A DNA stretch of 48,222 nucleotides, taken from contig JAGLSL010000008.1 of NCBI GenBank assembly GCA_023135785.1, positions 1 through 48,222 on the forward strand, written 5' to 3'. Made by a program: the position numbers and the translations under genes. This DNA comes from a bacterium. Its GTDB lineage: Bacteria; CAIJMQ01. The first letter of the stretch is position 1; each line of letters begins with the position of its first letter. The notes under the pieces were generated by a model, which ran no database searches, had not been told where the DNA came from, and saw only the letters and a program-made list of their open reading frames with translations. This document shows positions 10,001 through 47,638 of the stretch, piece after piece.

Positions 10001-10007
10001 AAGTCAA

Positions 10008-10187: not shown

Positions 10188-10192
10188 TTTTT

Positions 10193-14023: not shown

Positions 14024-14097
14024 CGTCCCCAGGAGGAGTCGAACCTCCAACCTACGGATCCGAAGTCCGTTGCTCTATCCAGTTGAGCTATGGGGAC
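14024..14097 (-). tRNA. tRNA-Arg (anticodon TCG)
   Basis: The reverse complement folds as GTCCCCA-TA-GCTC-AACTGGATA-GAGC-A-ACGGA-CTTCGGA-TCCGT-AGGTT-GGAGG-TTCGACT-CCTCC-TGGGGAC-G. Confidence 0.9.
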
Positions 14098-23993: not shown

Positions 23994-24047
23994 AATTGTC
24001 GGATTTTAAAAATTTTCTCCACTTTTAAAAAATTTAACTTATTTTTT

Positions 24048-24062
24048 GCACAATTTTTGTGC
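24048..24062. promoter_or_regulatory. palindromic operator candidate GCACAA-ttt-TTGTGC, abutting TGC-TATAAT (extended -10 at 24060-24068)
   Basis: Perfect 6+3+6 palindrome. The same motif occurs at 28948-28962 and, with one mismatch, at 31197-31211. Confidence 0.5.
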
Positions 24063-24093
24063 TATAATTTCATCTGTTGATTTAGTGAGATTT

Positions 24094-24129
24094 AACCACG
24101 ACGCCGTGGAAAGCGCCGTGGTTTTTTTA
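24094..24129 (+). terminator. intrinsic terminator or attenuator in the dapL-gdhA spacer
   Basis: AACCACG (24094-24100) pairs with CGTGGTT (24117-24123), followed by a T7 run. The direct repeat CGCCGTGG x2 offers an alternative, non-terminating partner at 24105-24109. Confidence 0.55.
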
Positions 24130-24131
24130 TT

Positions 24132-24158
24132 TTGTAATATTAGAAAAAGTGGTAAAAT
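24132..24158 (+). promoter_or_regulatory. second promoter candidate for gdhA (TTGTAA-N15-TGG-TAAAAT)
   Basis: Extended -10 TGGTAAAAT at 24150-24158. The spacer is short at 15 nt. Confidence 0.3.
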
Positions 24159-24216
24159 CCACAAAGCAGTGATAACGACAAAGGTGTCTAACAAGTTAAG
24201 TGAGGAGGTTAGTTCT

Positions 24217-28530: not shown

Positions 28531-28872
28531 ATGAAACTTATAATTGCAATGATACAACCGCACAAATTACCGGATGTAAAAAAAGCGCTCTATGATGCGA
28601 AAGTTTATAAAATGACTGTCTCCAATGCATTAGGTTGCGGGCAACAAAAAGGATTTAGTGAAACTTACCGTGGCGTAATCCACGAAGTGAATTTATTGAA
28701 AAAAGTAAGACTGGAGATAGCAGTTAACAAAGATTTTGTTGAACCAACAATTAACGCAATCATTAAAGGAGCAAGAACCGGCAACATCGGAGACGGCAAG
28801 ATATTTGTTTTGGACTTACAGGAATGTATTAGAATAAGAACAGGGGAACGCGGATATGATGCTATAGGATAA
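28531..28872 (+). CDS. glnK: P-II nitrogen regulatory protein
   Basis: 113 aa. [16 protein letters not shown] and a T-loop with YRG; GDGKIFV...C.RIRTGE. Adjacent to amt. Confidence 0.9.
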
Positions 28873-30448: not shown

Positions 30449-31168
30449 ATGAGTTTATCGCAAGAAATCAGCAATTGGATAGAAAAGCAAGTTAAAAACG
30501 CCAATAAAAAAGGTATTGTTTTAGGACTGAGCGGGGGAATTGATTCTTCGGTAGTAGCGGTTTTATCGAAGAAAGCATTAGGCGATAATGTTCTCGGGTT
30601 ACTCCTTCCCTGTAATAGTTCCAACATAGACGAGAGGTTGGCAACGGAACTTGCAAACACATCCAACATAAAAACCAGGAAGATAGATTCGTCCGGCCTC
30701 TTTAATCAGCTAATTAATATAAATCCCAAAGCAAATGACCTGGCTAAAGCCAATTTGAAACCCAGGTTGAGAATGCTGATTTTGTATTATTTTGCTAACT
30801 CATTGGATTATTTAGTAGCAGGTACCGGAAACAAAAGCGAGATAATGACAGGTTACTTTACCAAACACGGTGATGGAGGCTGTGATGTTTTGCCTTTGGG
30901 AGGATTATTGAAAACAGAAGTGAAAAGTTTAGCAAGAGAGTTGAATCTTCCATCTGAAATTATAAAAAGACCGCCAACTGCGGGGCTTTGGGAAGGGCAA
31001 ACAGATGAATCCGAAATGGCTATAACTTATAAAGATTTAGATAAATGTCTTATAGCAATTGAAAGTAAAACTTTTAAAAATCTTAAAGAATCGGACTTAA
31101 AAAGAGTACGGTTGATGATTAAGAAATCACACCATAAAAGAAAAAGAATTCCAATGTTCTATTTTTAA
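30449..31168 (+). CDS. nadE: NH3-dependent NAD+ synthetase
   Basis: 239 aa. SGGIDSS PP-loop and GTGNKSE..TGYFTK.GDGG. There is no glutaminase (CN-hydrolase) domain. Confidence 0.9.
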   Translation: MSLSQEISNWIEKQVKNANKKGIVLGLSGGIDSSVVAVLSKKALGDNVLGLLLPCNSSNIDERLATELANTSNIKTRKIDSSGLFNQLININPKANDLAKANLKPRLRMLILYYFANSLDYLVAGTGNKSEIMTGYFTKHGDGGCDVLPLGGLLKTEVKSLARELNLPSEIIKRPPTAGLWEGQTDESEMAITYKDLDKCLIAIESKTFKNLKESDLKRVRLMIKKSHHKRKRIPMFYF

Positions 31169-31218: not shown

Positions 31219-31446
31219 ATGATAGACAATATTTCTGATATATTGGATAAAGATTTTTATGATATAGACGCTGGCAAGATATATGCCAACATGGTCAACC
31301 GTGTTGAAAAAATAGTTATAACAAAAGCACTTGAGCGTTCATGCGGCAACCAGGTTGAGGCATCAAAGATACTCGGGCTACACCGCAATACTTTACATAG
31401 TAAGATAAAGAAGTTTAATATAGACATAATGAAATTTAAAAAATGA
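31219..31446 (+). CDS. stand-alone Fis-type (HTH_8) DNA-binding protein
   Basis: 75 aa. VEKIVITKALERSCGNQVEASKILGLHRNTLHSKIKKFNI matches the C-terminal HTH of the Fis and NtrC families. Stop overlaps the gltB start (ATGA at 31443). The RBS is weak. Confidence 0.6.
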   Translation: MIDNISDILDKDFYDIDAGKIYANMVNRVEKIVITKALERSCGNQVEASKILGLHRNTLHSKIKKFNIDIMKFKK

Positions 31447-34400
31447 ATTCCAGATCTTTTCCTGTTAAACAGGGATTATATGACCCGTGGTTTGAGCACG
31501 ACAGTTGTGGTGTGGGATTTGTCTGCAATATAAACGGGGAAAAATCGCATGATATTGTAAGTAAAGGCATCGAGGTTCTTGAAAGATTAAGTCACAGAGG
31601 CGCCGTTGGAGCTGATCCCGAAACGGGAGATGGCGCAGGCATATTGATACAAATACCCCATAAATTCTTACTGCAACAATGTAAAGAAAACGATATTCTA
31701 TTGCCCAAATTCGGACATTATGGAACAGGATTGGTTTTCCTACCTACCGATAATAAAGAAAAAAACTTCTGCATTAATCTATTCAAAAAAACTGTTAATG
31801 AAGAGGGGCAAAAATTTCTCGGCTGGCGTAATCTCCCTGTAGATAGTTCGGTGATAGGAGAAAGCGCAAAAAAAACCATGCCGTTTATTTCTCAAGTCTT
31901 TATTGGAAGAAATAAAAACTTAAAGACTCAGGCTACATTTGAGAGAAAACTCTATATCATTAGAAAACAAATTGAGAATATTATCCGCTCATCTTCCTTA
32001 AAGCAAAAATCCTGCTTTTATATTACAAATTTATCATCCAAAACCCTAAGTTATAAAGGATTATTAAAACCTTCCCAATTAAGAGATTTTTTCCCTGACC
32101 TAAAGAATAAAACTATAGAAAGTTCTTTATGTCTGGTTCATTCACGATACAGCACAAACACCTTCCCTACTTGGGATCTATCACAACCATTCAGGTTCTT
32201 AGCTCATAATGGAGAGATAAACACCTTGCGCGGAAACATAAATTGGATCAGAGCAAGAGAACGGCTTCTTGTAAACGAATTATTCGGCACGGATATAGAA
32301 AAATTAAAACCAGTTATTGTTGAAGGAGGCAGTGACTCGGCAGCTATTGATAACGTCTTTGAACTGCTAGCGTTGTCAGGCAGACCTCTTGAGCATGCAA
32401 TGATGATGCTTATTCCTGAAGCTTGGGAGCACAACGATTTTTTAAATAAAGAACTTGAAGATTTTTATAAATACCATGCCTGCTTTATGGAGCCATGGGA
32501 CGGTCCGGCTGCAATAGCGTTTACAGATGGAAAAAATATCGGAGCAATACTAGACAGAAACGGACTTAGACCTGCGCGTTATATTGTAACCAAGAATGAT
32601 TTTGTGGTAATGGCATCAGAGGTCGGAGTTCTCAATATAGACCCTGAAGATATTAAGACCTCAGGAAGACTTGAGCCGGGTAAAATATTCCTTATTGATA
32701 CCCAATCCGGACGCATAGTGCAAGATTGTGAAATTAAAAAGAAAGTCTCTATGTCTTCTCCTTATGGTAAGTGGAATACTGCGAATATGGTTAACCTCGA
32801 TAAACTTATTACCAGCGGCACAGGTAATAAAAAATCTGAAGATATCATGTCTCAACTAAAAGCCTTCGGTTATTCCAGAGAAGATTTAAAAATGATTATA
32901 AAACCTATGGCAGAAGACGGCAAAGAACCTACTGGTTCCATGGGGAATGATACTCCTCACGCATTTTTATCAAAAAAACCTCAAATCCTTTATAACTATT
33001 TCAAACAACTTTTCGCGCAAGTAACAAATCCTGCCATAGACTCAATAAGAGAAAAACTTGTTATGAGTCTGGAAAGTTTTGTTGGACCTGAGAAAAACAT
33101 CTTAGAGGAAACACCGGAACATAGCCATAAACTTACGGTAAAAAATCCAATACTAACAAACGACGAGTTTGAAAAGATTCGCGATATAAGCATAAACGGG
33201 TTCACATCAAAGACACTCTATACTTTCTTCAATGCGGCAGACGGTCAGGAGGGATTTAGGCTTACTTTAGAAAGGATTTGCTTTGAAGCAGAATATGCTA
33301 TTGAAAAGGGATATTCTTTTATCGTACTCAGTGACAGAGGAACAAACAAAGATAATATAGCTTTACCAATGCTTTTGGCTACAAGCACCATTCATCAACA
33401 CCTTGTAAGAAAAAATATACGTTCGCAGGTCGCAATTATAATCGAAAGCGCAGAACCACGGGAAGTACATCATTTTGCGCTCCTTTTCGGTTACGGCGCA
33501 GATTGTATAAACCCATACCTTGCATATGAAACAATAGAATATCTCATAGAACAAAAGGAGATTAACGTAGATATTAAAAAAGCGCTTGCAAATTACAACC
33601 AAGCACTAAGAAACGGCATATTAAAAATACTATCCAAGATGGGAATATCCACCTTAAGAAGTTATAGAGGCGCGCAGATATTTGAAGCATTGGGTTTGGA
33701 TAACGAGCTTATAGAAAAGTTTTTTACCGGGACAGTATCGAGAATAGGAGGGGTAGGACTTGAAGGCATAGCAGACGAAACCATAGAAAGACATAAATTC
33801 GCCTATCCTAAAAGAGGTATGACAGCCCCCTATCTGGCAAGCGGCGGAATATACCAATGGAAAAAAGATGGAGAATTTCACCTTTGGAACCCTGAGAGTA
33901 TCGCTGCGCTGCAGGATGCTACGTGCAATAATGACTATGCTCTATACAAAGAATTTGCAAATATGATCAATGACCAATCAAAAAACCCTACGACTTTGAG
34001 GGGACTGCTTAAATTTAAAAAAGGAAAACCAATTTCTATTGATAAAGTTGAACCTGCCCGAAAGATAATGAAACGTTTCGCAACAGGAGCAATGAGCTTC
34101 GGCTCAATCTCCAAAAAAGCGCATGAAACAATCGCAATTGCCATGAACAGAATTGGGGGGAAATCCAATACCGGTGAAGGCGGTGAAGACCCTAATAGAT
34201 TTATAAAATTACCAAATGGAGATTCCAAACGAAGCGCTATAAAGCAAGTTGCTTCCGGTAGATTCGGAGTTACTATTAATTATTTGGTAAATGCAGACGA
34301 GATTCAAATAAAAATTTCCCAAGGAGCAAAACCGGGTGAAGGCGGCCAACTTCCCGGACATAAAGTAAGTGAAATTATTGCAAGAACGCGCTATACAACT

Positions 34401-35975
34401 CCGGGCGTTACTTTAATATCACCACCTCCACATCATGATATATATTCAATTGAAGACCTTGCCCAACTAATATTTGATTTAAAAAACGCTAACCCCAAAG
34501 CGCGCGTGAGTGTAAAATTAGTTTCTGAAATAGGAATAGGGACTATTGCTGCAGGAGTTGCAAAAGGTCATGCAGATATGATTCTTATCTCCGGCGCTGA
34601 CGGAGGAACTGGAGCATCTCCTAAAAGCTCTATAAGATATGCAGGGCTTCCTTGGGAATTAGGACTTTCAGAAACACACCAGACCCTTTTACTTAACAAC
34701 CTGCGTTCCGGAGTTCGTCTGCAAACTGATGGGCAAATGCGAACAGGTCATGATGTTGCGATTGCAGCGCTTTTAGGCGCCGAGGAATACGGGTTTTGCA
34801 CAGCCGTACTCATTACATCAGGATGCGTTATGTTAAGGCACTGCCACTTAAATAATTGTTCCGTCGGAGTAGCCACACAGGATGATATTTTACAAAAAAG
34901 ATTTAGAGGAAAACCTGAATATATAGTTAACTATTTCAATTTTATAACACACGAGCTTCGCGAAATAATGGCAAATCTTGGCATAAAAACTATAAACGAA
35001 ATGATAGGCAGAACAGACCTTCTTGAAGTTAATAAAGATATAATTCCTGTTAAAGCAAAAGGGATAGATTATTCACAAATGCTTTATAAACCCGAGCTTC
35101 CCCCTAATGTAGGACGATACTGCACATCAAAACAGAAAAACGAGCTTGATTCTGTATTAGACAGAAAACTAATAAGGATGTGTAAAAACACTTTTGAGAA
35201 AAATGAACCGACAAATATTTCGCTTTTAATCAAAAATACAGACCGAACAACAGGCGCAATGTTAAGCGGAGAAATATGCAAAAGATGCGGTGATGGAACG
35301 CTTTTAGAGGATACTATTACCTGCAAGTTCAAAGGCACGGCAGGGCAAAGTTTCGGAGCATTCCTTGCAAAAGGCATTACATTTGAACTGGAAGGCATGA
35401 CTAACGACTATGTAGGTAAAGGCATTTCCGGCGGAAAAATTATCATCTATCCTGACAGAAAAGCAGACTACACTCCCGACGAGAATGTAATTGTAGGAAA
35501 TACCACCTTCTACGGGGCTATATCAGGCGAAGCATATATATGTGGCATTGCAGGGGAAAGATTCTGCGTAAGAAATTCCGGACTTTATGCTGTTGTAGAG
35601 GGCGTTGGCGACCATGGTTGCGAATATATGACAGGCGGAAGAATAATAGTTCTTGGAAAAACCGGAAGAAATTTTGCGGCAGGAATGTCAGGCGGGATAG
35701 CATATATATATGATGAAGATAAAACTTTCAAAAACAAATGCAACAAGAATATGGTCAAATTAGAAAAAATAGAAGAAAGCGATAAAGACACAATATGTAA
35801 ATTACTTAACAACCACTTTAAATATACGAAAAGCAAGAAAGCAAAAAGAATTATAAAAAATATAGACAATGAATTGAAAAAATTCGTTAAGGTCATGCCG
35901 ATGGAATATCGGCGTATCTTAGAAAAAGTAAAGATAGAAGAGAAACTAGAATTGACGGAGGAATTAGATGGGTGA
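31443..35975 (+). CDS. gltB: glutamate synthase large subunit
   Basis: 1510 aa. Ntn Cys in HDSCGVGF, an FMN/3Fe-4S central domain (GEGGE, ISPPPHHDIYSIEDL) and a C-terminal GXGXG beta-helix. Confidence 0.95.
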   Translation: MNSRSFPVKQGLYDPWFEHDSCGVGFVCNINGEKSHDIVSKGIEVLERLSHRGAVGADPETGDGAGILIQIPHKFLLQQCKENDILLPKFGHYGTGLVFLPTDNKEKNFCINLFKKTVNEEGQKFLGWRNLPVDSSVIGESAKKTMPFISQVFIGRNKNLKTQATFERKLYIIRKQIENIIRSSSLKQKSCFYITNLSSKTLSYKGLLKPSQLRDFFPDLKNKTIESSLCLVHSRYSTNTFPTWDLSQPFRFLAHNGEINTLRGNINWIRARERLLVNELFGTDIEKLKPVIVEGGSDSAAIDNVFELLALSGRPLEHAMMMLIPEAWEHNDFLNKELEDFYKYHACFMEPWDGPAAIAFTDGKNIGAILDRNGLRPARYIVTKNDFVVMASEVGVLNIDPEDIKTSGRLEPGKIFLIDTQSGRIVQDCEIKKKVSMSSPYGKWNTANMVNLDKLITSGTGNKKSEDIMSQLKAFGYSREDLKMIIKPMAEDGKEPTGSMGNDTPHAFLSKKPQILYNYFKQLFAQVTNPAIDSIREKLVMSLESFVGPEKNILEETPEHSHKLTVKNPILTNDEFEKIRDISINGFTSKTLYTFFNAADGQEGFRLTLERICFEAEYAIEKGYSFIVLSDRGTNKDNIALPMLLATSTIHQHLVRKNIRSQVAIIIESAEPREVHHFALLFGYGADCINPYLAYETIEYLIEQKEINVDIKKALANYNQALRNGILKILSKMGISTLRSYRGAQIFEALGLDNELIEKFFTGTVSRIGGVGLEGIADETIERHKFAYPKRGMTAPYLASGGIYQWKKDGEFHLWNPESIAALQDATCNNDYALYKEFANMINDQSKNPTTLRGLLKFKKGKPISIDKVEPARKIMKRFATGAMSFGSISKKAHETIAIAMNRIGGKSNTGEGGEDPNRFIKLPNGDSKRSAIKQVASGRFGVTINYLVNADEIQIKISQGAKPGEGGQLPGHKVSEIIARTRYTTPGVTLISPPPHHDIYSIEDLAQLIFDLKNANPKARVSVKLVSEIGIGTIAAGVAKGHADMILISGADGGTGASPKSSIRYAGLPWELGLSETHQTLLLNNLRSGVRLQTDGQMRTGHDVAIAALLGAEEYGFCTAVLITSGCVMLRHCHLNNCSVGVATQDDILQKRFRGKPEYIVNYFNFITHELREIMANLGIKTINEMIGRTDLLEVNKDIIPVKAKGIDYSQMLYKPELPPNVGRYCTSKQKNELDSVLDRKLIRMCKNTFEKNEPTNISLLIKNTDRTTGAMLSGEICKRCGDGTLLEDTITCKFKGTAGQSFGAFLAKGITFELEGMTNDYVGKGISGGKIIIYPDRKADYTPDENVIVGNTTFYGAISGEAYICGIAGERFCVRNSGLYAVVEGVGDHGCEYMTGGRIIVLGKTGRNFAAGMSGGIAYIYDEDKTFKNKCNKNMVKLEKIEESDKDTICKLLNNHFKYTKSKKAKRIIKNIDNELKKFVKVMPMEYRRILEKVKIEEKLELTEELDG

Positions 35976-37413
35976 TCCAAGAGGTTTCTTGAAAATATCC
36001 AGACAAACGGGAGAATACAGAGAAGTATCTAGGCGTCTCCAAGACTTTAAACATGTTGCAAAGTTGCGATCTGAAAAAAAGTCAAAAGAACAAGCTTCGC
36101 GATGCATGGACTGCGGAACTCCCTTTTGCCATTGGAATTGCCCAATAGGCAACTATATTCCTGAATGGAATGATTATATGTTCCATAGCAATTGGCAAGC
36201 TGCATTCGCTTTATTAAACTCGACAAATAATATGCCTGAGATAACAGGAAGGATTTGTCCCGCCATCTGCGAGTATGCGTGCGTATTAGGATTGAATGAT
36301 GAAGCTGTAACCATACGCGAAAATGAACTTGCTATTATAGAATTTGCGTTTAAAAACAAATTAATAAAACCCCATATCCCCAAAGAAAGAACCGGTAAAA
36401 AAATAGCCGTTATAGGTTCGGGTCCGGCAGGATTATCCTGCGCCGCGCAACTTAACAGCACAGGTCATAGTGTCATAGTTTTTGAAAAAGATAAGAAACC
36501 GGGAGGAATCCTACGCTACGGCATACCTGATTTTAAACTTGAAAAAAACCTTATAGACAGGCGTATTGATATATGGAAGAAAGAGGGCATTACTTTTAAA
36601 ACAGGGATAGATGTTGGTAAAGATTATTCTGTAAAAAAACTTCTAAAAGATTTTGATGCCATATGCCTGGCAGGCGGGTCAAGAATTCCCAACGACCTTA
36701 ACATTAAAGGAAGAAATCTAAAAGGTATATATTTTGCAATGGATTATCTAATCCAATCAAACAAGCTCGCATCAGGTGAAAAAATATCACCAAATGAGGT
36801 CATAAACACTAAAGGCAAAAAAGTAATTGTTCTAGGTGGAGGCGACACGGGGGCAGACTGTATCGGAATAGCGCATAGACAATCAGCTTCAAGTGTTGTA
36901 CAAATAGAAGTCATGCCAAAACCGCCAAAATGCCGCAACGAAGAACATCCCTGGCCCAACTATCCTTTAATCCTAAAGACCTCATCCAGCCACGAAGAAG
37001 GTGGCCAGCGCCATTGGGAAATACTCACGAAATATTTTATTGGAAATAAGGGGTTAGTAAAGAAGCTTGAATGCGTAAAGGTCGAATTTGCAAAAGAAAA
37101 AGGTAATAATTGTCCTGTTATGAAGGAAGTTGCAGGAAGTAATTTTGAAATTGAGGCAGACCTTGTTATTTTAGCTGTCGGATTTTCACACCCCCAACAT
37201 TCAGGTTTGCTCAGCGAACTAAAAGTAGAACTTGATAAGCGTGGGAATGTAAAAACTAGCGATAACTTTATGACTTCCGTTGACAAGATATTCTGCGCAG
37301 GTGACATGAGAAGAGGCCAGTCACTTGTAGTATGGGCTATATCTGAAGGACGACGTTGCGCCCATTCTATTGATAAAAATCTGATGGGAGAAAGCAATCT
37401 GGCTTCTATGTAA
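35968..37413 (+). CDS. gltD: glutamate synthase small subunit (NADPH)
   Basis: 481 aa. Fe-S Cys motifs (RCMDCGTPFCH, CPAICE.AC), VIGSGPAGL, GGGDTG.DC and GD..RGQSLVVWAI.EGR. 8-nt overlap with gltB. Confidence 0.95.
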   Translation: MGDPRGFLKISRQTGEYREVSRRLQDFKHVAKLRSEKKSKEQASRCMDCGTPFCHWNCPIGNYIPEWNDYMFHSNWQAAFALLNSTNNMPEITGRICPAICEYACVLGLNDEAVTIRENELAIIEFAFKNKLIKPHIPKERTGKKIAVIGSGPAGLSCAAQLNSTGHSVIVFEKDKKPGGILRYGIPDFKLEKNLIDRRIDIWKKEGITFKTGIDVGKDYSVKKLLKDFDAICLAGGSRIPNDLNIKGRNLKGIYFAMDYLIQSNKLASGEKISPNEVINTKGKKVIVLGGGDTGADCIGIAHRQSASSVVQIEVMPKPPKCRNEEHPWPNYPLILKTSSSHEEGGQRHWEILTKYFIGNKGLVKKLECVKVEFAKEKGNNCPVMKEVAGSNFEIEADLVILAVGFSHPQHSGLLSELKVELDKRGNVKTSDNFMTSVDKIFCAGDMRRGQSLVVWAISEGRRCAHSIDKNLMGESNLASM

Positions 37414-37433
37414 ACATATAAAGGGTTATTAAA

Positions 37434-40058
37434 ATGATAAGCACAGGTATAAATGGTTTAGATAATATAATTACAGGATTAAGAATTGGGGATAATACTG
37501 TTTGGCAAATAGATGACATAAAGGACTATGCCCAACTCGTTAAACCGTTTGTAGCGCAGGCACTTAAAGACAAGAAAAAAGTTGTATACATGAGGTTTGC
37601 TTCCCATAAAGAACTGCTTAAACCTTCACCAAAAATAAAACGCTATGAACTTAATGCATATGCGGGATTTGAATCTTTTGCCACAAAAGTCAACAACATA
37701 ATTACACGGGAAGGCGAAGGCGCATATTATGTATTTGACTGCCTTTCAGAACTTCTTTCAGCCTGGGCTACCGACCTTATGATAGGAAACTTTTTCATGG
37801 TCACTTGTCCTTATCTTTACGAACTTAAAACCGTCACATACTTCTCAATATTAAGATATAAACATTCCTTTAAGTCAATAGCCAGGATACGTGAGACAAC
37901 TCAATTATTGGTGGATGTATATCATTGCCAAGGTAGTTTTTACATACATCCTCTAAAAGTTTGGAATCGTTATTCTCCCACTATGTTTCTTCCTCACCAG
38001 AAAGAAAACGGTAAATTTACACCTATTACAGACAGTGTTAACGCTGTAAAGTTGCTTTCTTATATACACGAAAAGGGAGCGGAGAGCGCAAAAAGAAATC
38101 TGGATTATTGGGACCTTTTATTTATCAAGGCAGAGGAACTACTCAAGAATAATGCTTCGAAGAATAAAATAAAAAATATGGTAAAAAAACTTTGCGGCAT
38201 AATGTTAACAAAAAACGAAAAAATATTATCCCTGGGGATACAACACTTCTGTTTAGAAGAACTTATCGAGATAAAATCAAGATTGATAGGCACAGGATAT
38301 ATTGGCGGGAAAAGCACAGGAATGCTTCTTGCTCGAAAAATTCTTTCGGAGAACAAATTGCTTAATTGGGAGAAAATCTCAGAATCGCACGACTCATTTT
38401 ATATAGGTTCGGATATATTCTATTCATACATAGTGCAGAACCGATTATGGAAACTACGTATGCAACAGAAAACAGAGGGCGAATACTTCAAAGTAGCAAA
38501 AATCCTAAAAGAAAAGATACTTTATGGAACCTTTCCTGAAGAAATTATGGAACACTTTCAGCAGATTATAGAATATTTTGGCTCATCGCCTATCATAATA
38601 CGCTCAAGTTCACTTTTAGAAGACGGTTTTGGCAACGCATTTGCCGGAAAATATGAAAGCATATTTTTAGCCAATCAAGGAAGCCCCGAACAAAGATATA
38701 TTCAATTTGCAGAAGCTGTAAAGAAAGTATATTCAAGCACTATGAGCGAAGACGCCCTTGCATATAGAAAACAAAGAGGCCTGGATAAATTAGACGAACA
38801 AATGGCGCTGTTGGTGCAAAGAGTTTCGGGCGCCCCTCACCAAGAGTATTTCTTTCCTGACCTTGCGGGAGTTGGTCTATCTCACAATATATACATGTGG
38901 AATGAAAATATGAATCCAAAGGCAGGAATACTCAGATTAGTTTTTGGACTTGGAACAAGAGCAGTTAACCGCGTTGAAGGGGATTATCCTAGAATGGTTG
39001 TACTCGACAATCCTTTACAAAGACCATACGCAGAAAAAGATGACTTGAGAAAATTTTCACAACACGAAGTAGACCTTATAAACATAAAAGAAAATGCTTT
39101 TAAGACCATCCCTTTCGAAAATCTTATAAATGAAAAATCTTATGTAAATATAGACCGCGTCGCTGTAAAAGATTATGAGTCCATACACATGATGAGTAAG
39201 AACGACACCGAAGACAAAGAATATTGGATATTGACACTGGATAATGTATTTAACGGTAATACATTGATAAGTTTATTTAAAAAGATATTAAAATCACTTG
39301 AGAAAAGTTACGGCTATCCTGTCGAGATAGAATTTACGGTAAACTTTGTAAGGGATAATACCTTCAAAATAAATTTACTGCAATGCAGGCCACTACAGAC
39401 AACGGGGCGCGGACGTAGAGTTGGGATGCCAAATATTGTAAAGAGAGAAAATATATTCTTCCAGTCACAAGGATATTTTCTGGGAGGCAATATTTCGCAG
39501 GAAATACGAAGGATTGTATATATTGACCCACAGAAATATAGTAAACTTATATTATCTGATAAATATGAAATCGCCCGTATAGTAGGAAGATTAAACAGCT
39601 GCATAGAAAGCAGGGAAAAGTTACCCACTCTTCTTATGGGACCAGGAAGATGGGGCACCACAACACCATCCTTAGGTATACCGGTAAAATTTGCAGAAAT
39701 AAACAATGTGGCAATCCTTGCAGAAGTCGCCTTCTCGGAAGGTAACCTTATGCCTGAACTGTCTTTCGGAACACATTTTTTCCAGGACTTGGTTGAAACA
39801 AACATATTCTATGTTGCATTGTTTCCTGAGAAAAAATCTGCCCGCTTCGCCGAGAGGCAAGCAGGCGGAGATATTATATTCAACGATAAATTTTTCAAGA
39901 AAGATAAAAATTTACTCGCAAAACTTGTGCCTCAATCGGCTAAATATAAAGATGTTATCGGTGTATATGATATAAGTAGCGGAGATTTAAAAATAATGTC
40001 AGACATAGTCTCGCAGAAGATTATATGTTTTTCAGACTCAAAAAGGATACTTAAATGA
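37434..40058 (+). CDS. uncharacterised PEP/pyruvate-binding (PPDK_N, ATP-grasp-like) domain protein with a degenerate KaiC/RecA-like N-terminal domain
   Basis: 874 aa. The centre has IGGKSTGMLLARKIL and IIIRSSSLLEDGFGNAFAGKYESIFL, resembling the nucleotide-binding domain of PEP synthase/PPDK. I found no phosphohistidine swivel motif (G.TSH). The N-terminus GINGLDNIITGLRIGDNTVWQIDD resembles the KaiC/RadA entry motif but has no GxxGxGK(S/T). The stop overlaps the carA start (ATGA at 40055). Confidence 0.7.
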   Translation: MISTGINGLDNIITGLRIGDNTVWQIDDIKDYAQLVKPFVAQALKDKKKVVYMRFASHKELLKPSPKIKRYELNAYAGFESFATKVNNIITREGEGAYYVFDCLSELLSAWATDLMIGNFFMVTCPYLYELKTVTYFSILRYKHSFKSIARIRETTQLLVDVYHCQGSFYIHPLKVWNRYSPTMFLPHQKENGKFTPITDSVNAVKLLSYIHEKGAESAKRNLDYWDLLFIKAEELLKNNASKNKIKNMVKKLCGIMLTKNEKILSLGIQHFCLEELIEIKSRLIGTGYIGGKSTGMLLARKILSENKLLNWEKISESHDSFYIGSDIFYSYIVQNRLWKLRMQQKTEGEYFKVAKILKEKILYGTFPEEIMEHFQQIIEYFGSSPIIIRSSSLLEDGFGNAFAGKYESIFLANQGSPEQRYIQFAEAVKKVYSSTMSEDALAYRKQRGLDKLDEQMALLVQRVSGAPHQEYFFPDLAGVGLSHNIYMWNENMNPKAGILRLVFGLGTRAVNRVEGDYPRMVVLDNPLQRPYAEKDDLRKFSQHEVDLINIKENAFKTIPFENLINEKSYVNIDRVAVKDYESIHMMSKNDTEDKEYWILTLDNVFNGNTLISLFKKILKSLEKSYGYPVEIEFTVNFVRDNTFKINLLQCRPLQTTGRGRRVGMPNIVKRENIFFQSQGYFLGGNISQEIRRIVYIDPQKYSKLILSDKYEIARIVGRLNSCIESREKLPTLLMGPGRWGTTTPSLGIPVKFAEINNVAILAEVAFSEGNLMPELSFGTHFFQDLVETNIFYVALFPEKKSARFAERQAGGDIIFNDKFFKKDKNLLAKLVPQSAKYKDVIGVYDISSGDLKIMSDIVSQKIICFSDSKRILK
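39837..39872 (+). repeat. GC-rich mini-palindrome TCTGCCCGC...GGCGGAGA, in frame inside the 874-aa gene
   Basis: Encodes SARFAERQAGGD, in the same reading frame relative to the arm as the pdxA copy (PARQSLSGGG). Confidence 0.5.
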
Positions 40059-41155
40059 AGGCGAAACTTGCTCTTGAAGACGGGACGGTATGGGAAGGAT
40101 TAAATTTCGGCGCAAAAGGTGAAAGCTATGGTGAAATAGTTTTCAATACCAGCATGGCCGGCTATCAGGAAATACTTACCGACCCTTCCTACAAGGGTCA
40201 GATTGTTGCCATGACTTATCCCCTCATCGGAAATTACGGAATAAACAGCGAAGATGTGGAATCTATAAAACCCTTCTTAGAAGGTTTCGTAGTAAAAGAA
40301 TGCAGTCAAATCTCCAGTAGTTGGCGTTCAGAAAAAAGTCTGGATGAATACCTTAAAGAAAATAATATTATAGGCATAGAAGGCATAGATACGCGCGCTC
40401 TTACAAAACATATTAGATTGCAGGGAGCAATGAAAGCGGTAATCTCTACAAAAGATTTAGATAACAACTCATTAATCAAAAAAGCAAAAGCATCCGAGGG
40501 ATTGATAGGCAAAGATTTGGTCAAAGAGGTCACCTGTAAAAAAATACAAACTTGGAACGAGAGAGGTAAACACAAAGTTGTCGTATTGGATTGCGGGGTA
40601 AAATTCAATATCTTAAGAGAACTATCCAATAACAACTGTAAAGTGATTTTCCTGCCGGCTAAAACCGATGCAAAAACCATATTGGGTTTGAAACCTGACG
40701 GGCTACTACTCTCAAACGGCCCGGGCGACCCGGAAGGTGTTGCCTATGTTGTGGAAACCGTAAAAAAATTATTAGACAAGTTACCAATTTTCGGCATATG
40801 TTTCGGGCAACAAATGTTGGGGTTGGCTCTGGGCGGAAAAACATATAAATTAAAATTCGGACATCATGGAGCAAACCATCCCGTCAAAGATTTAAAAACA
40901 GGCAAAATTTACATAACCGCGCAGAATCACGGATTCTGTGTCGATATAAATTCTTTAAACAAAGAAGACATCGAAATTACACACGTAAACTTAAACGATA
41001 ATACTTTAGAGGGAATAAGACACAAAAAATTGCCCGTTTTTTCCGTGCAATTTCATCCTGAGGCAGGACCCGGTCCAAACGACGCAAAATACCTGTTCGG
41101 GGAATTTGTAGAGATGATGGATAAAGACAGAAGACAGAAAACAGACGACAGATGA
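40055..41155 (+). CDS. carA: carbamoyl-phosphate synthase small (glutaminase) subunit
   Basis: 366 aa. FGICFGQQ catalytic Cys and FSVQFHPEA. The last ~10 codons and the stop lie in the GACAGA word repeat. Confidence 0.95.
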   Translation: MKAKLALEDGTVWEGLNFGAKGESYGEIVFNTSMAGYQEILTDPSYKGQIVAMTYPLIGNYGINSEDVESIKPFLEGFVVKECSQISSSWRSEKSLDEYLKENNIIGIEGIDTRALTKHIRLQGAMKAVISTKDLDNNSLIKKAKASEGLIGKDLVKEVTCKKIQTWNERGKHKVVVLDCGVKFNILRELSNNNCKVIFLPAKTDAKTILGLKPDGLLLSNGPGDPEGVAYVVETVKKLLDKLPIFGICFGQQMLGLALGGKTYKLKFGHHGANHPVKDLKTGKIYITAQNHGFCVDINSLNKEDIEITHVNLNDNTLEGIRHKKLPVFSVQFHPEAGPGPNDAKYLFGEFVEMMDKDRRQKTDDR

Positions 41156-41229: not shown

Positions 41230-42951
41230 ATGCCTAAAAGAACGGATATAAAAAAGATATTAATAATCGGCGCAGGTCCTATCGTAATCGGACAGGCATG
41301 CGAATTTGATTATTCGGGAACACAGGCATGTAAAGTTCTCAAAGCCGAAGGATTTCATGTTATCCTGCTAAACAGCAATCCTGCAACGATTATGACAGAT
41401 CCGATAACAGCTGATAAAACATACATCGAGCCAATTACTCCCGAAATAGTTCAAAGAATTATTGAAAAAGAAAAACCCGACGCTATTCTGCCCACACTCG
41501 GCGGACAAACTGCGCTAAATGTTACCGTACAAGTTGCAGAAATGGGAATATTTGATAAATACAATGTGGAAGTCATAGGCGCAAATATACAAGCTATCAA
41601 AAAAGCCGAAAACAGAGAACTATTCAAAAAGGCAATGCATAAAATAGGGCTGGATTTACCCAGAAGCGACAAAGCGCACAGCTTAAAAGAAGCCTTAGAG
41701 GTGGTCGAAGAAATCGGAATTCCCGTAATTATAAGACCAAGTTTCACATTGGGAGGAACAGGCGGAGCAGTCGCATACAATATAGAAGAATTCAAACGAT
41801 TAGCTAAGACAGGTCTTGAATCGAGCATGATTAGCCAAATATTAATTGAAGAATCCGTCATCGGATGGAAAGAATTCGAATTGGAAGTTATGCGAGACGT
41901 AAAAGACAATGTTGTTATTATATGTTCTATAGAAAATTTTGACCCTATGGGGGTTCATACAGGTGATTCAATTACGGTTGCTCCCATACAAACTTTAACA
42001 GACAAAGAATATCAAAACATGCGTGATGCCTCAATTGCATGCATCAGAGAAATAGGTGTAGAAACAGGCGGTTCCAATGTTCAATTTGCGGTTAATCCGG
42101 ATAACGGACGAATGGTAGTTATTGAAATGAATCCCCGTGTATCAAGAAGTTCCGCATTGGCCTCCAAAGCAACAGGATTTCCCATTGCAAAAATAGCCGC
42201 AAAACTTGCCATAGGATATACGCTGGATGAAATTCCCAATGACATCACAAAAGAAACTCCCGCGTGTTTTGAACCAACAATCGATTATTGCGTAGTTAAG
42301 ATACCACGATTTACTTTCGAAAAATTCTCCGAAGCGAACGCTACTCTAACCGTATCCATGAAATCCGTAGGCGAGGCAATGGCAATCGGACGAACATTCA
42401 AAGAAGCGTTGCAAAAAGGATTAAGGTCTTTGGAAATAGGAGTAGACGGTCTTATGGATTTAAAATTTCAAGTTAGCGAAATTCAACTTTTCGAAAAGTT
42501 AAGAACTCCAAACGCCGAGAGAATTTTTTATATAAAATACGCATTAAAGAACGGTATGAATATAGACGATATTTATAAACATACTCAAATTGACAGATGG
42601 TTTTTACATAACATCCAAGAAATTGTAGAATTGGAAAAACAAATAACAGATTCCAGACAACAGATTTCAGACAACAGAAATCAGAAAATTAAAAATAAAA
42701 AACAAAAAGATATGTCATCTGATGTCCGTCCTCTGTCTTCTGATTTGTTATTGAAAGCTAAACAATTCGGGTTCAGCGACAAACAACTTGCAAGGATGCT
42801 AAAAACAGAGGAAGAAATTATTAGAAATTTACGTAATAAATTAAATATTAAAGCTGTATATAAATTGGTCGATACCTGCGGTGCAGAATTTGAAGCTTAC
42901 ACACCATATTACTATTCTACCTATGAAAAAGAAAACGAAAGCTGTAATTAA
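41230..42951 (+). CDS. carB: carbamoyl-phosphate synthase large subunit, N-terminal half only (first ATP-grasp plus oligomerisation domain)
   Basis: 573 aa. [30 protein letters not shown], then the ATP-grasp domain, ending at [27 protein letters not shown]. From memory this is where the second synthetase half of the ~1070-aa enzyme begins. Confidence 0.85.
42641..42752 (+). repeat. imperfect CAGA/TCTG word palindrome, in frame within carB
   Basis: aaataacagattccagacaacagatttcagacaacagaaatcagaa...tcatctgatgtccgtcctctgtcttctgatttgttatt. The ends AATAACA/TGTTATT are complementary. Encodes [34 protein letters not shown]. Confidence 0.75.
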
Positions 42952-44485
42952 AGAATATGTTGCGATTCTGGATTTTGGTTCGCAATACACGCAATTAATC
43001 GCTCGCAGAGTAAGAGAGTGTAAAATCTATTCCGAAATATTCCCATATACCGTCTCCCTTAAAAAAATTATCGCGGACAAACCCAAGGCTATCATTCTAT
43101 CCGGCGGGCCGGCAACAGTTACCTTGAGCAAGAGTCCGACTATATCAAAGCAGATATTCGAACTTGGGATTCCCGTATTAGGCATATGCTACGGCATGCA
43201 ACTTATGGCAAAATTATTTGACGGTAAAGTGAAGCGTTCTCCAAACCGCGAATATGGAAATGCAAAATTAAACATAGCAAAATCCGACAAAATTTTTAGC
43301 GGACTTAGCAAAAACTTCACCGTCTGGATGAGCCATGGGGACCAAGTACTGACTCTTCCCAAAGATTTCAAGGCAATCGCATACAGTTCAAACGCCAAAA
43401 TAGCAGCAATACAGAATAAAACAAAAAAATTATACGGCGTCCAGTTTCATCCTGAGGTAGTCCATACTCCTCAAGGTTTAAAAATAATAGATAATTTCTT
43501 AAAGAAAATATGCGGATGTTCTGCCAGCTGGACAATAAGTTCATTTATTAAAAATTCCGTAAAAGATATAAGAAAAGAAGTGGGAAACAACCGCGTTATT
43601 TGCGCTTTAAGCGGCGGAGTAGATTCTTCCGTATTGGCAATTCTTCTGCATAAAGCAATAGGGAAGAGACTTTCATGTGTTTTTGTTGATAACGGCTTAT
43701 TACGAAAAAATGAAGCGGCGCAAATTGTTAAAAAATTTAAACAGCAGTATAAACTAAATCTAATTCATGTCGATGCAAGTAAAAGATTTATAAAAGAATT
43801 AAAAGGTGTCATTGATCCTGAGGAAAAACGGCATATTATCGGTAAGGAATTCATAAAAGTATTTGAAGCCGAGGCAAAGAAATCAGGTAAAATAAAATTT
43901 TTGGCGCAAGGAACTCTTTATCCCGATGTAGTAGAATCTCAGTCCGTATTTGGAGGGCCTTCTGCCACAATAAAATCACACCATAATGTCGGAGGACTGC
44001 CCAAGAATATGCAATTTAAACTTATTGAACCATTCAGATCCTTATTCAAAGACGAAGTAAGAAAAGTCGGAGAAGAACTAAAACTTCCAGAAAACATAAT
44101 ATGGAGGCAACCTTTTCCCGGACCCGGATTGGCGGTAAGAATAATAGGAGAAATAACCGAAGAAAGAATAAATATCTTAAAAGAAGCTGATTCAAGAATT
44201 CAGGATGAAATAAAAGCCGCAGGTCTTTATAAAGAAATCTGGCAATCTTTCGGAGTCCTTCTTCCGATTAAAACAGTCGGGGTTATGGGGGACGAACGAA
44301 CTTATGAAAATGTTATTACTATAAGAGCCGTAACAAGTCAGGACGGCATGACTGCAGATTGGGTAAAATTGCCGTATGAATTACTGGGTAAAATTTCCAA
44401 CAGAATAATTAATGAAGTTAAAGGTGTAAACAGAGTGGTTTATGATATTTCAAGTAAACCGCCGGCAACAATTGAATGGGAATAA
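42923..44485 (+). CDS. guaA: GMP synthase (glutamine-hydrolysing)
   Basis: 520 aa from [39 protein letters not shown], the FHPE GATase triad, the SGGVDSS PP-loop and a C-terminal PPATIEWE. Overlaps the carB 3' end by 29 nt. Confidence 0.95.
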
Positions 44486-44492
44486 CAAACTA

Positions 44493-44606
44493 CAGAAAAT
44501 AGAAATACGGTAGATATACGATAGAAATATGGTAGAAATATATAACAAGATGCAGGTAGGCAATTTATTTCCATTATATTTCAATGTATTTCGATTTATT
44601 TCTTTC
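44493..44606. repeat. GAAATA/TATTTC word hairpin upstream of hisH
   Basis: Left arm acagaaaatagaaatacggtagatatacgatagaaatatggtagaaatat. Right arm aatttatttccattatatttcaatgtatttcgatttatttct. Homologous to 6468-6556. Confidence 0.8.
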
Positions 44607-44634
44607 TTATTTTATCGAACGAAGTGAGGTAAAT

Positions 44635-45261
44635 ATGATAGCAATAATTGACTACGGGATGGGAAATTTAAGAAGTGTTAGCAAAGCTCTGGAATCTGTC
44701 GGCGCAAAAACTATAGTCACAAATAAACCCGAAGACATAAAATCCGCCGATGCAGTAATCCTGCCAGGAGTTGGCGCATTTTACAGAGGCATGGAAAATC
44801 TAAAGGATAAAAAACTTTTGCCCGTTATATCCGAAGCTGTAAAAAGCAAAAAGCCCTTTTTGGGCATTTGCTTAGGATTACAACTCTTATTCACAGAAAG
44901 CGAAGAACACGGTATATCCAAAGGATTGGGGCTAATAAAAGGACGCGTTAAAAAATTCTCCTCCGGCTTAAAAATTCCACATATGGGATGGAACCAAATA
45001 AGACTAAAGACCGAAGACCAAAGACCAAAGACCATAAACTTATTTAAAGATATACCGGATGAAAGTTATTTTTACTTCGTGCATTCTTATTACGTAGAGC
45101 CTGAAGACAAAAACACTATTATTGCTACTACCAATTATGGCGAAAATTTTGTTTCGGCAATAAATAAAGATAATATATGGGGTGTCCAATTTCACCCCGA
45201 AAAAAGCTCGGATTTGGGATTAAAAATTTTAAAAAATTTCGTTGAATCAATAAAAAAATAA
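44635..45261 (+). CDS. hisH: imidazole glycerol phosphate synthase, glutaminase subunit
   Basis: 208 aa from MIAIIDYGMGNLRS. GICLGLQ catalytic Cys, HMGWN and QFHPEKS. The ORF-track start at 44584 lies in a repeat arm. Confidence 0.95.
   Translation: MIAIIDYGMGNLRSVSKALESVGAKTIVTNKPEDIKSADAVILPGVGAFYRGMENLKDKKLLPVISEAVKSKKPFLGICLGLQLLFTESEEHGISKGLGLIKGRVKKFSSGLKIPHMGWNQIRLKTEDQRPKTINLFKDIPDESYFYFVHSYYVEPEDKNTIIATTNYGENFVSAINKDNIWGVQFHPEKSSDLGLKILKNFVESIKK
45001..45035 (+). repeat. heptamer AGACC(A/G)A x4-5, in frame within hisH
   Basis: agactaa agaccga agaccaa agaccaa agaccat encodes LKTEDQRPKT, in a loop about 6 aa longer than I recall for E. coli HisH. Confidence 0.8.
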
Positions 45262-45267
45262 TGTTAG

Positions 45268-45291
45268 CCCCGTTAGAAATATTTTAACGGG
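45268..45291. repeat. minimal CCCCGTTAGAAAT...TTAACGGG hairpin (arms of the ACCCCGTTAGAGAT family without an interior)
   Basis: CCCGTTA/TAACGGG stem in the hisH-hisF spacer. The right arm runs into the hisF RBS GGGAGG. Confidence 0.55.
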
Positions 45292-45306
45292 AGGAAAAGA
45301 TAACAA

Positions 45307-46110
45307 ATGGAAAAAGAAACTAAATTTCTAACAGGGTTAGCAAAAAGAATAATACCCTGCTTAGACGTAAAAGGCGGACGTGTTGTAAAAGGCATTAAGT
45401 TCCGTGAACACCGTGACGCCGGCGATCCTGTAGAACTTGCCTTTTTTTATAATAAAGAGGGTGCTGATGAGCTGGTATTCTACGACATTACAGCATCCAG
45501 TGATGAGCGTTCCATAATGCTTGATGTGGTTCGGCGAACAGCTAACCAGCTTTTTATACCCCTTACCGTAGGTGGCGGTCTGCGTACTGTGGATGACATG
45601 AACCAAATGCTGAAAGCCGGAGCGGACAAAATATCTATTAATACCGCAGCAGTAATGAACCCCAAATTGATATCAGAGGGCGCGCAACGCTTCGGCAGTC
45701 AATGCATAGTGCTTGGAATGGATGCCAAGCGTATCCCCGATTCAAATCCAGTTCGCTGGATTATTCACACTCATACAGGCGCGGACGGAGGACATTCCGC
45801 AGGTCTGGATGCAATAGACTGGGCAAAACAGGCAGTGGAACTGGGAGCGGGCGAGATTGTGGTAAACAGTATTGATGCCGATGGCACTAAAAAGGGATAT
45901 GACCTGGAGTTGCTACGCGCTATTTCAGAAAATGTTTCAGTCCCTGTAGTTGCCAGCGGCGGAGCAGGTAATTTAGACCATCTTGCCGAAGCCCTGACTA
46001 AAGGCAAAGCCGATGCAGTCCTCGCCGCTTCAATCTTTCATTATGGCGAATATTCAATTAAAGAAGCAAAAGAATATCTTAAAAAGAAGGGAATTCTTGT
46101 AAGAATATAA
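45307..46110 (+). CDS. hisF: imidazole glycerol phosphate synthase, cyclase subunit
   Basis: 267 aa. [26 protein letters not shown] and ASGGAG...ASIFH. Confidence 0.95.
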
Positions 46111-46242
46111 TAGTAACCAGTAACCTGTGTACTGTAACCAGAAAAATATGAAAGAAAATTTCCAGTTCGATTTTGAAAAGTTGAGTGTATATCTATGTAG
46201 ATTTTTAACTGTGAACTGTAAACTGGTTACTGTTAACTAACC
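46111..46242. repeat. GTAAC/GTTAC word hairpin between hisF and purF
   Basis: Left arm tagtaaccagtaacctgtgtactgtaaccag. Right arm taactgtgaactgtaaactggttactgttaactaacc. Confidence 0.8.
46148..46240 (+). pseudogene. 30-codon ORF, possibly the N-terminal remnant of a four-helix-bundle (23S rRNA IVS-type) protein gene
   Basis: MKENFQFDFEKLSVYLCRFLTVNCKLVTVN*. The first 15 aa resemble the F.FE.L.VY(Q/K) N-terminus I recall for TIGR02436-type proteins. The remainder is read-through of the right repeat arm. Confidence 0.3.
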
Positions 46243-46261
46243 GAGCATAAGCGAGGTAAAC

Positions 46262-47638
46262 GTGTGCGGAATATTTGGAATATACGGTCATAAAGATGCA
46301 TCTCGGCTCACCTATCTGGGGCTTTATGCTCTCCAGCATCGCGGTGAAGAAAGCGCCGGCATAGTTTCCGCTAACGGTGGCGGCAAAGTAAAATCCCATA
46401 ATGGTATGGGGCTTGTATCCGATGTCTTCAAGGAAAAAACCATAAAATCTCTTCACGGAAATGTAGCAGTTGGTCATGTCCGTTATTCAACAACCGGTTC
46501 AAGCATTTCCAAAAACATACAGCCGTTTCTTGTAGCTCACCGAAAAGGTCATATAGCAATTGCTCATAACGGCAATCTCGTAAACACTAAACAATTGCGA
46601 CACGGGATGGAGAACAAGGGATCCATTTTCCAAACCTCAATGGATTCGGAGCTTGTAGTCCACCTAATTGCGAAATCGGATAAAAAAGATAAGAAACACA
46701 TTATTATAGAGGCCCTATCACAACTTGAAGGCGCTTATTCAATAATTCTAATGATGAACAATACATTAATCGGAGCAAGAGACCCTTACGGATTTAGACC
46801 CCTTTGCGTAGGCAAACTTGACGGGGCATATGTACTGGCAAGCGAAACCTGCGCATTAGATTTAATACAGGCAAAATATGTCCGCGATATAGAACCAGGC
46901 GAGATTGTGTTTATTGACAACCAAGGACTTCGCTCCATTAAACCTTTCCCGCCCCAAAAACACGCATCCTGTATATTTGAATACATATATTTCTCAAGAC
47001 CTGACAGTAATATATTCGAAAAAAACGTTTACTTGACAAGAAAGCGATTAGGCAAACAGCTTGCAAAAGAACATCCCGTCAAAGCCGATTTAATAATGCC
47101 TATCCCAGACTCAGGCAACTACGCAGCGCTCGGTTTCGCAGAAGCATCCAACATACCATACGAAATAGGAATGATACGAAATCATTATATCGGCAGAACA
47201 TTTATCCAGCCGTCACAGTTTATACGCGATTTCAAAGTAAAAATTAAGTTAAATCCCATAAAAGACGTGCTTAAAGGTAAGCGCATAGTAATAATAGAAG
47301 ATTCCATAGTAAGAGGCACAACAAGCCGCATAAGAGTAAAAACCCTAAGAGAAGCAGGCGCAAAAGAAGTCCATATGCGGGTAAGTTGTCCTCCGCTTAT
47401 ATCGCCCTGTTTCTACGGCATAGATTTCCCCACAAAAAAAGAACTCATTGCTTCAAACCGCACAATTGAAAGCATAAAAAATTTTATAGGATTAGACAGC
47501 CTAAAATATCTAAGTTTGGAAGGTATGCTCAAATCAATGTTATTGCCGAAAGAAGAATTTTGTACGGCATGTTTCACAGGCAATTATCCAATTAAGTTAT
47601 CTAAAAAAGTTTCTAAAAAAATGCTGGAGAAAAATTAA
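46262..47638 (+). CDS. purF: amidophosphoribosyltransferase
   Basis: 458 aa. GTG start followed by the Ntn Cys (MCGIFGI). The PRTase motif [12 protein letters not shown] and an Fe-S Cys context. Confidence 0.95.

Follow-up and report, generated by a model that had tools for sequence, protein, structure and literature searches.

The gene designated X here (37434..40058, + strand), which lies between gltD and carA in a 48,222-nucleotide stretch of contig JAGLSL010000008.1 (the window), encodes an 874-residue protein with an ATG start that comprises a pseudo-KaiC domain, a PPDK_N-type ATP-grasp domain, and a conserved C-terminal domain. The linkage of X to nitrogen genes is strong and has arisen in several arrangements, and we tentatively suggest, from sequence and gene neighbourhood, that X acts as an ATP-dependent, dikinase-like phosphotransferase on the glutamate-forming node. 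The window has a G+C content of ~37%, and its closest relatives are metagenome-assembled genomes (MAGs) of Candidatus Omnitrophota.

Linkage of X to ammonium-assimilation genes

Gene neighbourhoods were compared across 80 loci from GTDB genomes, nearly all of them Omnitrophota, and 80 metagenome loci collected with a diverse profile, in which X is 42–75% identical to the window protein, with flanking open reading frames (ORFs) within 6 kb clustered and key families confirmed by Pfam. The order gltB-gltD-X is held wherever upstream DNA is present in the Omnitrophota genome loci (~70 of the 80), with X followed either directly by carA, or by pyrG and then carA. Other lineages present different arrangements. 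A Sedimentisphaerales-type locus (57% identity) places X 4 nt downstream of a gene for a GAF-sigma54 activator, the pair being divergent from PII-glnA-gltB-gltD-nadE, with the same arrangement observed in loci L093, L099, and L110. The X gene of Pelotomaculum propionicicum (52% identity) is convergent with glnA-gltB-gltD, the 3' ends lying 29 nt apart, and that of Brevinematales (41% identity) is followed by gdhA and then by an Nfn-like pair.

Outside the Omnitrophota genome loci the commonest neighbour of X is gdhA, present within 6 kb in 43 loci, 32 of which are among the later-fetched, mostly non-Omnitrophota loci. The two genes lie no more than 400 nt apart in 23 loci, with gdhA on the same strand and upstream in ten, on the same strand and downstream in four, and convergent in nine. 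Genes encoding GAF-sigma54 activators (14 loci), Amt (11), PII (9), NrpR (8), and type III glutamine synthetase (GS-III; 6) are also recurrent, as are archaeal-type glutamate synthase (GOGAT; Glu_synthase) modules. The association extends to divergent members of the family, with one operon of distant paralogues comprising gdhA, a core lacking the N-terminal domain (583 aa), and a core with an added nucleotidyltransferase domain (1064 aa, 36% identity), and a standalone form lacking the N-terminal domain adjoining a GS/Amt-like gene. When X proteins were grouped by single linkage at 65% identity, 16 of the 24 clusters with usable flanks proved mostly nitrogen-linked, and the association as a whole covers at least four named lineages and at least five different arrangements. 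The first-pass annotation had treated preferential linkage to nitrogen genes as a prediction for the homologues of X, and this was borne out in several phyla with differing gene orders.

NrpR is the archaeal 2-oxoglutarate-sensing nitrogen repressor. Its homologues (PF01995, E 1e-73) adjoin X and/or gdhA in loci L094, L105, L116, L127, L128, L145, L160, and L162, all of which are metagenome contigs.

The ATP-grasp domain

The ATP-grasp domain spans residues 286–669 (38289..39440, +) and gives a near full-length match to PF01326 (PPDK_N; residues 289–669, profile positions 3–324 of 328, E 8.5e-49). The nucleotide-binding signature IIIRSSSLLEDGFGNAFAGKYES (residues 387–409; 38592..38660, +), from which a central PEP synthase/PPDK-type site had been proposed, falls inside this match. 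Conservation was read from 33 full-length homologues at 32–61% identity, the same sequences that were used for the AlphaFold2 (AF2) model described below. Across these sequences the motifs GTGxIGGK (286–293), RSSSxxED (390–397), FAGKYES, QRVSG, GLGTRAV, and E633...Q650-C651-R652-P653 are invariant or nearly so, with GGK, R390-S-S-S, E396-D397, E633, and Q650-x-R652 strictly invariant. All nucleotide and Mg signatures of phosphoenolpyruvate (PEP) synthase, PPDK, and rifampin phosphotransferase (RPH) are kept and, with every grasp signature (near-)invariant, the domain looks catalytically competent.

A Foldseek comparison of the model with the PDB returned RPH as the top match (E 3e-12 over ~400 columns), together with the HpeI dikinase subunit, a similarity that we attribute to the ATP-grasp domain of the model. 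Matches from a profile search of PDB sequences are likewise confined to the grasp segment of PEP synthases. An invariant cysteine, Cys651 (39384-39386), is part of the Q-C-R-P motif in the grasp active site and takes the place of an alanine in E. coli PpsA (QARP); it may serve as a redox switch or as a family-specific catalytic residue.

Beyond the grasp domain, membership of the known enzyme families is not observed. PF00391 (the phosphohistidine swivel domain, GGxTSHAAxxAR) and PF02896 (the PEP/pyruvate-binding TIM barrel) give no Pfam match in X, the protein ending ~200 residues past the grasp domain, and the NCBIfam models for PEP synthase, PPDK, RPH, PigC, and RedH match residues ~320–465 only, with scores of 23–70 bits against cut-offs of 456–1350. 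The PEP synthase equivalogs NF004881 and TIGR01418 score 69.7 against 883 bits and 43.4 against 739.75, respectively, the RPH equivalog NF041857 scores 29 against 999 bits over residues 336–464 only, and the prodigiosin ligase (PigC and RedH) equivalogs score 42.3 against 1300 and 31.1 against 1350 bits.

The C-terminal domain and His781

The C-terminal domain (residues 670–874; 39441..40055, +) is conserved, with no Pfam match in any of the 33 members even at E ≤ 10 and no match among PDB sequences. Foldseek searches of the whole model against the PDB and BFVD are dominated by KaiC/DnaB and ATP-grasp matches, with nothing on this domain. Residues G738, R739, G748, E764, S777, G779, and H781 are invariant in the 33 sequences, and two motifs stand out, GPGRWGT..P.LG.P and PELS.G(T/S)HFFQDLVE. 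The first-pass annotation had reported neither a phosphohistidine swivel motif nor a PEP-utiliser C-domain, and this holds, but it overlooked the conserved domain with its invariant histidine. His781 (codon 39774..39776, +) is a candidate phospho-acceptor, and the domain that bears it may be a divergent phospho-acceptor domain.

In the AF2 model this domain has three strands, two helices, and a further strand ahead of the GPGRWG loop; a strand and a loop then lead to the histidine, after which come one strand and finally three more, with His781 placed at the N-terminus of a helix. We infer from the model that this order resembles that of a swivelling beta/beta/alpha domain. The suspicion of a swivel domain arose from this order, from a likeness of the tryptophan of GPGRWG to that of TDPDW, and from a likeness of THFFQDLVE to SHAAIIARE. 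A divergent PEP-utilizer swivel domain was accordingly considered as a candidate, and hhalign was run in three rounds: the first used PpsA and PtsI of E. coli, the second a swivel profile of six sequences taken from PDB chains, and the third deeper profiles of 145 C-terminal domains and 22 non-redundant swivel domains. All rounds were non-significant, and the candidate is retained here only as a conjecture.

The N-terminal pseudo-KaiC domain

The AF2 model built from the 33 homologues reached a pLDDT of 86.6 and a pTM of 0.84; an earlier model from a shallow alignment (30 Omnitrophota sequences, 74–87% identical) had a pLDDT of 46 and was discarded. Residues 1–~215 (37434..38078, +) adopt a RecA/KaiC/FlaH fold in the model and are followed by a helical linker (residues ~216–285; 38079..38288, +) assigned from the AF2 secondary structure. 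The Foldseek matches of this type in the PDB, KaiC (7s65_B, E 3.3e-10 over ~222 columns), FlaH (4yds, TMt 0.66), and RecA (1xp8), are ones that we attribute to these N-terminal ~215 residues. X gives no KaiC match in Pfam, with a weak, sub-threshold PAXNEB/Elp4 match at residues 2–67.

The Walker A position reads G19-D20-N21-T-V-W in X, and the motif is absent from all 33 members, whose consensus of GDNVVWQ lacks the lysine and the threonine. A Walker-B-like hhhhD element is retained (YYVFD), with D102 invariant. With GDN in place of Walker A, the domain cannot bind nucleotide through a P-loop, and the description of this region as a dead KaiC-like domain, made previously from the letters alone, is confirmed by both the fold of the model and the missing motif.

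Size, architectures, and carriers of the family

The X family has 3827 matches (E ≤ 1e-3) in an exhaustive search of 1.84 billion cluster representatives; 865 of these, each a 50%-identity cluster, reach E ≤ 1e-30. The ATP-grasp and C-terminal domains form a constant core, which occurs with the pseudo-KaiC domain (~860 aa), without an N-terminal domain (~600 aa), with a different N-terminus (~770 aa), with an added C-terminal NTP_transf_2 domain (~1060 aa), and as double proteins (~1470–1650 aa). Geobacter sp. OR-1 encodes a 1472-aa fusion of a core lacking the N-terminal domain with one that bears it (L081 10001-14419), and the adjacent cores of 583 and 1064 aa in L174 (6256-11195), the latter carrying NTP_transf_2, overlap. 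This fusion or overlap of cores in pairs suggests that cores function as dimers.

The carriers are mostly uncultured anaerobes. Those with names are almost all MAGs, assigned to Omnitrophota, Sedimentisphaerales, Deltaproteobacteria, Deferribacteraceae/Denitrovibrio, Brevinematales, Clostridiaceae, and Peptococcaceae, with Pelotomaculum propionicicum (WP_134213514.1) and Geobacter sp. OR-1 as the cultured carriers. Conservation within the Omnitrophota is high, with 74–87% identity across the best Omnitrophota database matches and 57–78% identity to the window protein across the 80 genome loci. GltB is 72–80% identical in most of the same loci, falling to 64%, so that in the Omnitrophota genome loci X is conserved about as well as gltB and better than gltD. 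Public databases name members of the family either generically or as "phosphoenolpyruvate synthase" and "pyruvate, water dikinase", and these two names are almost certainly wrong.

Relation to known phosphotransfer systems

RPH (PDB 5HV1/5HV3), PEP synthase, and PPDK share with X the PPDK_N domain and its GGK, RSS..ED, FAG..E(S/T), and Q-x-R-P motifs, and RPH resembles X in having an invariant histidine in a domain downstream of the grasp domain. Unlike these enzymes, X has no detectable PF00391 swivel, PF02896 TIM-barrel, or RIF-binding domain and carries an additional pseudo-KaiC domain, its scores lie more than 10-fold below the curated RPH and PEP synthase cut-offs, and its context is nitrogen assimilation rather than antibiotic resistance or gluconeogenesis. 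The split aryl and ketone dikinases (phenylphosphate synthase; HpeHI/AcvAB, with HpeI represented by PDB 9GOJ) show that an ATP-grasp module can work with a separate partner, and the tandem and fused cores of the X family, as in the Geobacter fusion and the L174 operon, may be likened to them. However, the partners in split dikinases have canonical PEP-utilizer His domains and the genes lie in aromatic catabolic clusters, neither of which applies to X. When all collected loci were scanned by regular expression, no genuine PEP-utilizer gene turned up near X, and there is thus no candidate for a trans-acting swivel or TIM-barrel partner.

The fold of residues 1–~215 matches that of RecA-superfamily ATPases of the KaiC, FlaH, and RadA type, with hhhhD kept and a weak match to the Elp4 (PAXNEB) pseudo-ATPases, whereas the P-loop is absent and the domain occurs only once, joined to an ATP-grasp enzyme. 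GlnE, GlnD, and EI-Ntr (PtsP) offer a functional analogy only, being nucleotide- or phosphoryl-transfer enzymes that either act on GS and PII or are encoded alongside them. In EI-Ntr a swivel histidine phosphorylates a protein, and the enzyme senses glutamine and 2-oxoglutarate. The catalytic domains of GlnE, GlnD, and EI have no homologue in X, and its phosphoryl source would be ATP through the ATP-grasp domain, not PEP as in EI-Ntr, although an NTP_transf_2 domain, which belongs to the same fold family as GlnD and GlnE, occurs in some of its paralogues.

Proposed function and alternative explanations

We propose, with less than firm confidence, that members of the X family are PPDK_N-type ATP-grasp proteins, capable of catalysis and devoted to the ammonium-assimilation/glutamate node. 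ATP bound in the grasp cleft would phosphorylate or pyrophosphorylate His781 of the C-terminal domain, as occurs in dikinases and Enzyme I, and this domain would in turn transfer the phosphoryl group onto a target with a regulatory or a direct part in making glutamate. The likeliest target would be a protein partner, such as glutamate dehydrogenase (GDH), GOGAT, GS, PII, or one of their regulators, with the variable N-terminal modules (pseudo-KaiC, another, or none, and an added nucleotidyltransferase elsewhere) serving in oligomerisation, partner docking, or signal input. A regulatory role is favoured because of the variable N- and C-terminal additions, the co-transcription with GAF-sigma54 activators, the adjacency of PII and NrpR, and the paired cores; modular additions and tandem or fused cores are typical of signalling and regulatory proteins. 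A further step, which we regard as doubtful, would make X part of an unrecognised ATP-driven phosphotransfer system controlling ammonium assimilation in many anaerobic phyla, with pseudo-KaiC as a sensor or docking module. It is equally doubtful whether, in such a system, the novel His domain would be loaded from ATP and GDH, GOGAT, GS, PII, or the sigma54 and NrpR regulators subsequently modified.

Several observations weigh against the proposal. The hhalign probability of swivel similarity is ~1% against the PpsA, PtsI, and swivel profiles, and with no detectable PF00391 homology the case for a phospho-histidine relay consists solely of the invariant histidine and the order of secondary structure. 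Full-text searches of the literature brought up no paper about the family. The X gene of Geobacter sp. OR-1 has no nitrogen link, lying between an alpha-amylase-family gene and pgi, and pfk, pyrF, parAB, and CODH/ACS genes are neighbours elsewhere. The very high conservation of X would also fit a core metabolic enzyme, and the main rival holds that X is a small-molecule dikinase or kinase phosphorylating a metabolite of the glutamate node, with 2-oxoglutarate, glutamate, glutamine, and a cofactor common to GDH and GOGAT as candidates, by analogy with PEP synthase (pyruvate), RPH (rifampin), and enzymes of the phenylphosphate synthase/HpeHI type (phenol, acetophenone). The closest structures, RPH and HpeI, are indeed small-molecule dikinases, the grasp site is intact, X is as conserved as core enzymes are, the Omnitrophota operon around X is made of enzymes only, and 2-oxoglutarate, glutamate, and NAD(P)H are common to GDH and GOGAT, the two most frequent neighbours. 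Nevertheless, X has no recognisable substrate-binding domain like PEP-utilizers_C or the RIF-binding domain, we know of no pathway requiring such a phosphorylated intermediate, and the sensory-like variable N-termini, the GAF-sigma54 co-transcription, and the PII and NrpR neighbours look regulatory, leaving this explanation somewhat unlikely in our estimation.

An intact grasp domain could alternatively do no more than bind nucleotide, with X serving as a non-catalytic sensor of ATP/AMP or another effector, or as a scaffold such as an extra GOGAT or GDH subunit. The pseudo-ATPase N-terminal domain, the stop overlap and possible coupling with carA, and a conservation as high as several interaction surfaces would demand are consistent with this; yet the grasp catalytic and Mg-binding residues are invariant over 32–61% identity, together with the His, Arg, and Glu of the C-terminal domain, which argues for chemistry rather than mere binding and makes such a role decidedly unlikely. 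We also consider it unlikely that the nitrogen linkage has little meaning and that X is a general carbon or energy enzyme, for example a gluconeogenic or glycogen-related one. This would suit the Geobacter locus with its alpha-amylase-family gene and pgi, the isoamylase gene near X in Pelotomaculum, the pfk and pyrF contexts, and the roughly one third of X clusters with no nitrogen gene within 6 kb. It sits poorly with an association seen in at least four named lineages and five or more arrangements, with gdhA as the immediate neighbour in 23 loci and adjoining even 35%-identical paralogues, when adjacency within 6 kb would be expected by chance at ~0.5% for a single-copy gene in a 2–4 Mb genome (our own rough estimate). 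Finally, it is extremely improbable that X is a canonical PEP synthase, PPDK, RPH, or PigC-type enzyme misread in the first pass. The database names and the top Foldseek match to RPH point that way, but the far sub-cut-off NCBIfam scores limited to one segment, the lack of PF00391 and PF02896, the confinement of PDB profile matches to the grasp segment, and the negligible swivel probability refute it on membership, as the first-pass annotation had supposed.

Gene junctions and the surrounding amide-nitrogen cluster

The gltD-X spacer (37414..37433, +) is 20 nt long, too short for a terminator, and contains an AAAGGG Shine-Dalgarno-like stretch. The short gap had been noted previously, its length having been given as 21 nt, whereas the gltD stop ends at 37413. 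At the other end the TGA of X (40056-58) and the ATG of carA (40055-57) overlap in an ATGA (40055..40058, +), as was also noted, forming a possible translational coupling site. A terminator scan of the window found no terminator-like site between gltD, X, and carA. From the 20-nt gap, the ATGA overlap, and this absence, co-transcription of X with gltBD and carA is a reasonable inference, and X is probably translationally coupled to carA. Scans of the window for sigma54 promoters, sigma70 promoters, and terminators otherwise gave chance-level results only, and Rfam found no riboswitch in the cluster.

Upstream of X, all on the + strand, lie amt (ammonium transporter; 27092..28462), glnK/PII (28531..28872), glnA (glutamine synthetase type I; 29061..30392), nadE (NAD synthase; 30449..31168), gltB (GOGAT large subunit; 31443..35975), and gltD (GOGAT small subunit; 35968..37413). 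Further upstream is gdhA (GDH; 24217..25554, +), with a LuxR-type gene and a Gcw_chp gene listed between it and amt in the same direction. The mechanically called gdhA ORF begins at a TTG and has 57 extra residues (24046-24216); the likely start is the ATG at 24217, preceded by GAGGAGG, which gives a normal 445-aa GDH. Downstream of X, again on the + strand, are carA (40055..41155), the N-terminal half of carB (41230..42951; 573 aa, model positions 1–545 of 1058), guaA (42923..44485, with 42923 as its likely ATG start), and hisH, hisF, and purF (44584..47638), which are co-directional and add further glutamine amidotransferase genes. Some 23 kb of co-directional genes (24217-47638) thus unite most glutamine- and ammonium-handling enzymes in an unusually complete "amide-nitrogen" supercluster, of which pyrG is also a part in related genomes. 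The glutamine cluster described in the first pass is therefore real and larger than was thought, and X is, as stated there, its sole unknown, the genes from amt to purF otherwise being known ammonium-assimilation or glutamine-amidotransferase genes.

The carB half runs straight into guaA with an overlap of ~29 nt, and the C-terminal half is absent from the window. The two halves are adjacent in other Omnitrophota loci, with the split form also present in some (e.g. L006). That X stands in for the missing half, both being ATP-grasp enzymes, was considered and rejected, because most Omnitrophota loci have both carB halves plus X and because X is linked more widely to gdhA.

Elsewhere in the window, an NfnAB-like pair (440-2700, +) consists of a DHODB Fe-S subunit and a GltD-like Fer4_20/Pyr_redox_2 subunit. 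Such a pair directly follows X-gdhA in the Brevinematales locus (L175 12736-15016) and may connect with how GDH and GOGAT are supplied with NADPH. An 894-aa fusion of an N6 DNA methylase domain and a type I specificity (Methylase_S) domain (2833-5517, -) looks like a single-chain restriction-modification-type methyltransferase. The window also contains a 6S RNA (RF00013, 95.6 bits; 10006-10191, +) and tRNAs at 5866-5948, 6049-6120, and 14024-14097.

Implications

Whilst the PPDK_N ATP-grasp dikinase superfamily is already known, an architecture of pseudo-KaiC, grasp, and new His-bearing domains without the canonical swivel and TIM-barrel appears to be undescribed, as does the embedding of X in ammonium-assimilation loci across phyla. 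How GS, GOGAT, and GDH are regulated is well known from textbooks in proteobacteria, cyanobacteria, and firmicutes; to our knowledge it is essentially unknown in Omnitrophota, anaerobic Planctomycetota, syntrophic Peptococcaceae, and many candidate phyla. The misnaming of the X family also distorts metabolic reconstructions, for instance in the gluconeogenic capacity inferred for its carriers. At the carbon/nitrogen junction of poorly studied anaerobes, X offers a concrete candidate for a step, regulatory or enzymatic, that has so far been missing and, if the phosphotransfer system outlined above is true, it would play a role comparable to that of GlnE, GlnD, or PTS-Ntr while consisting of wholly different components.

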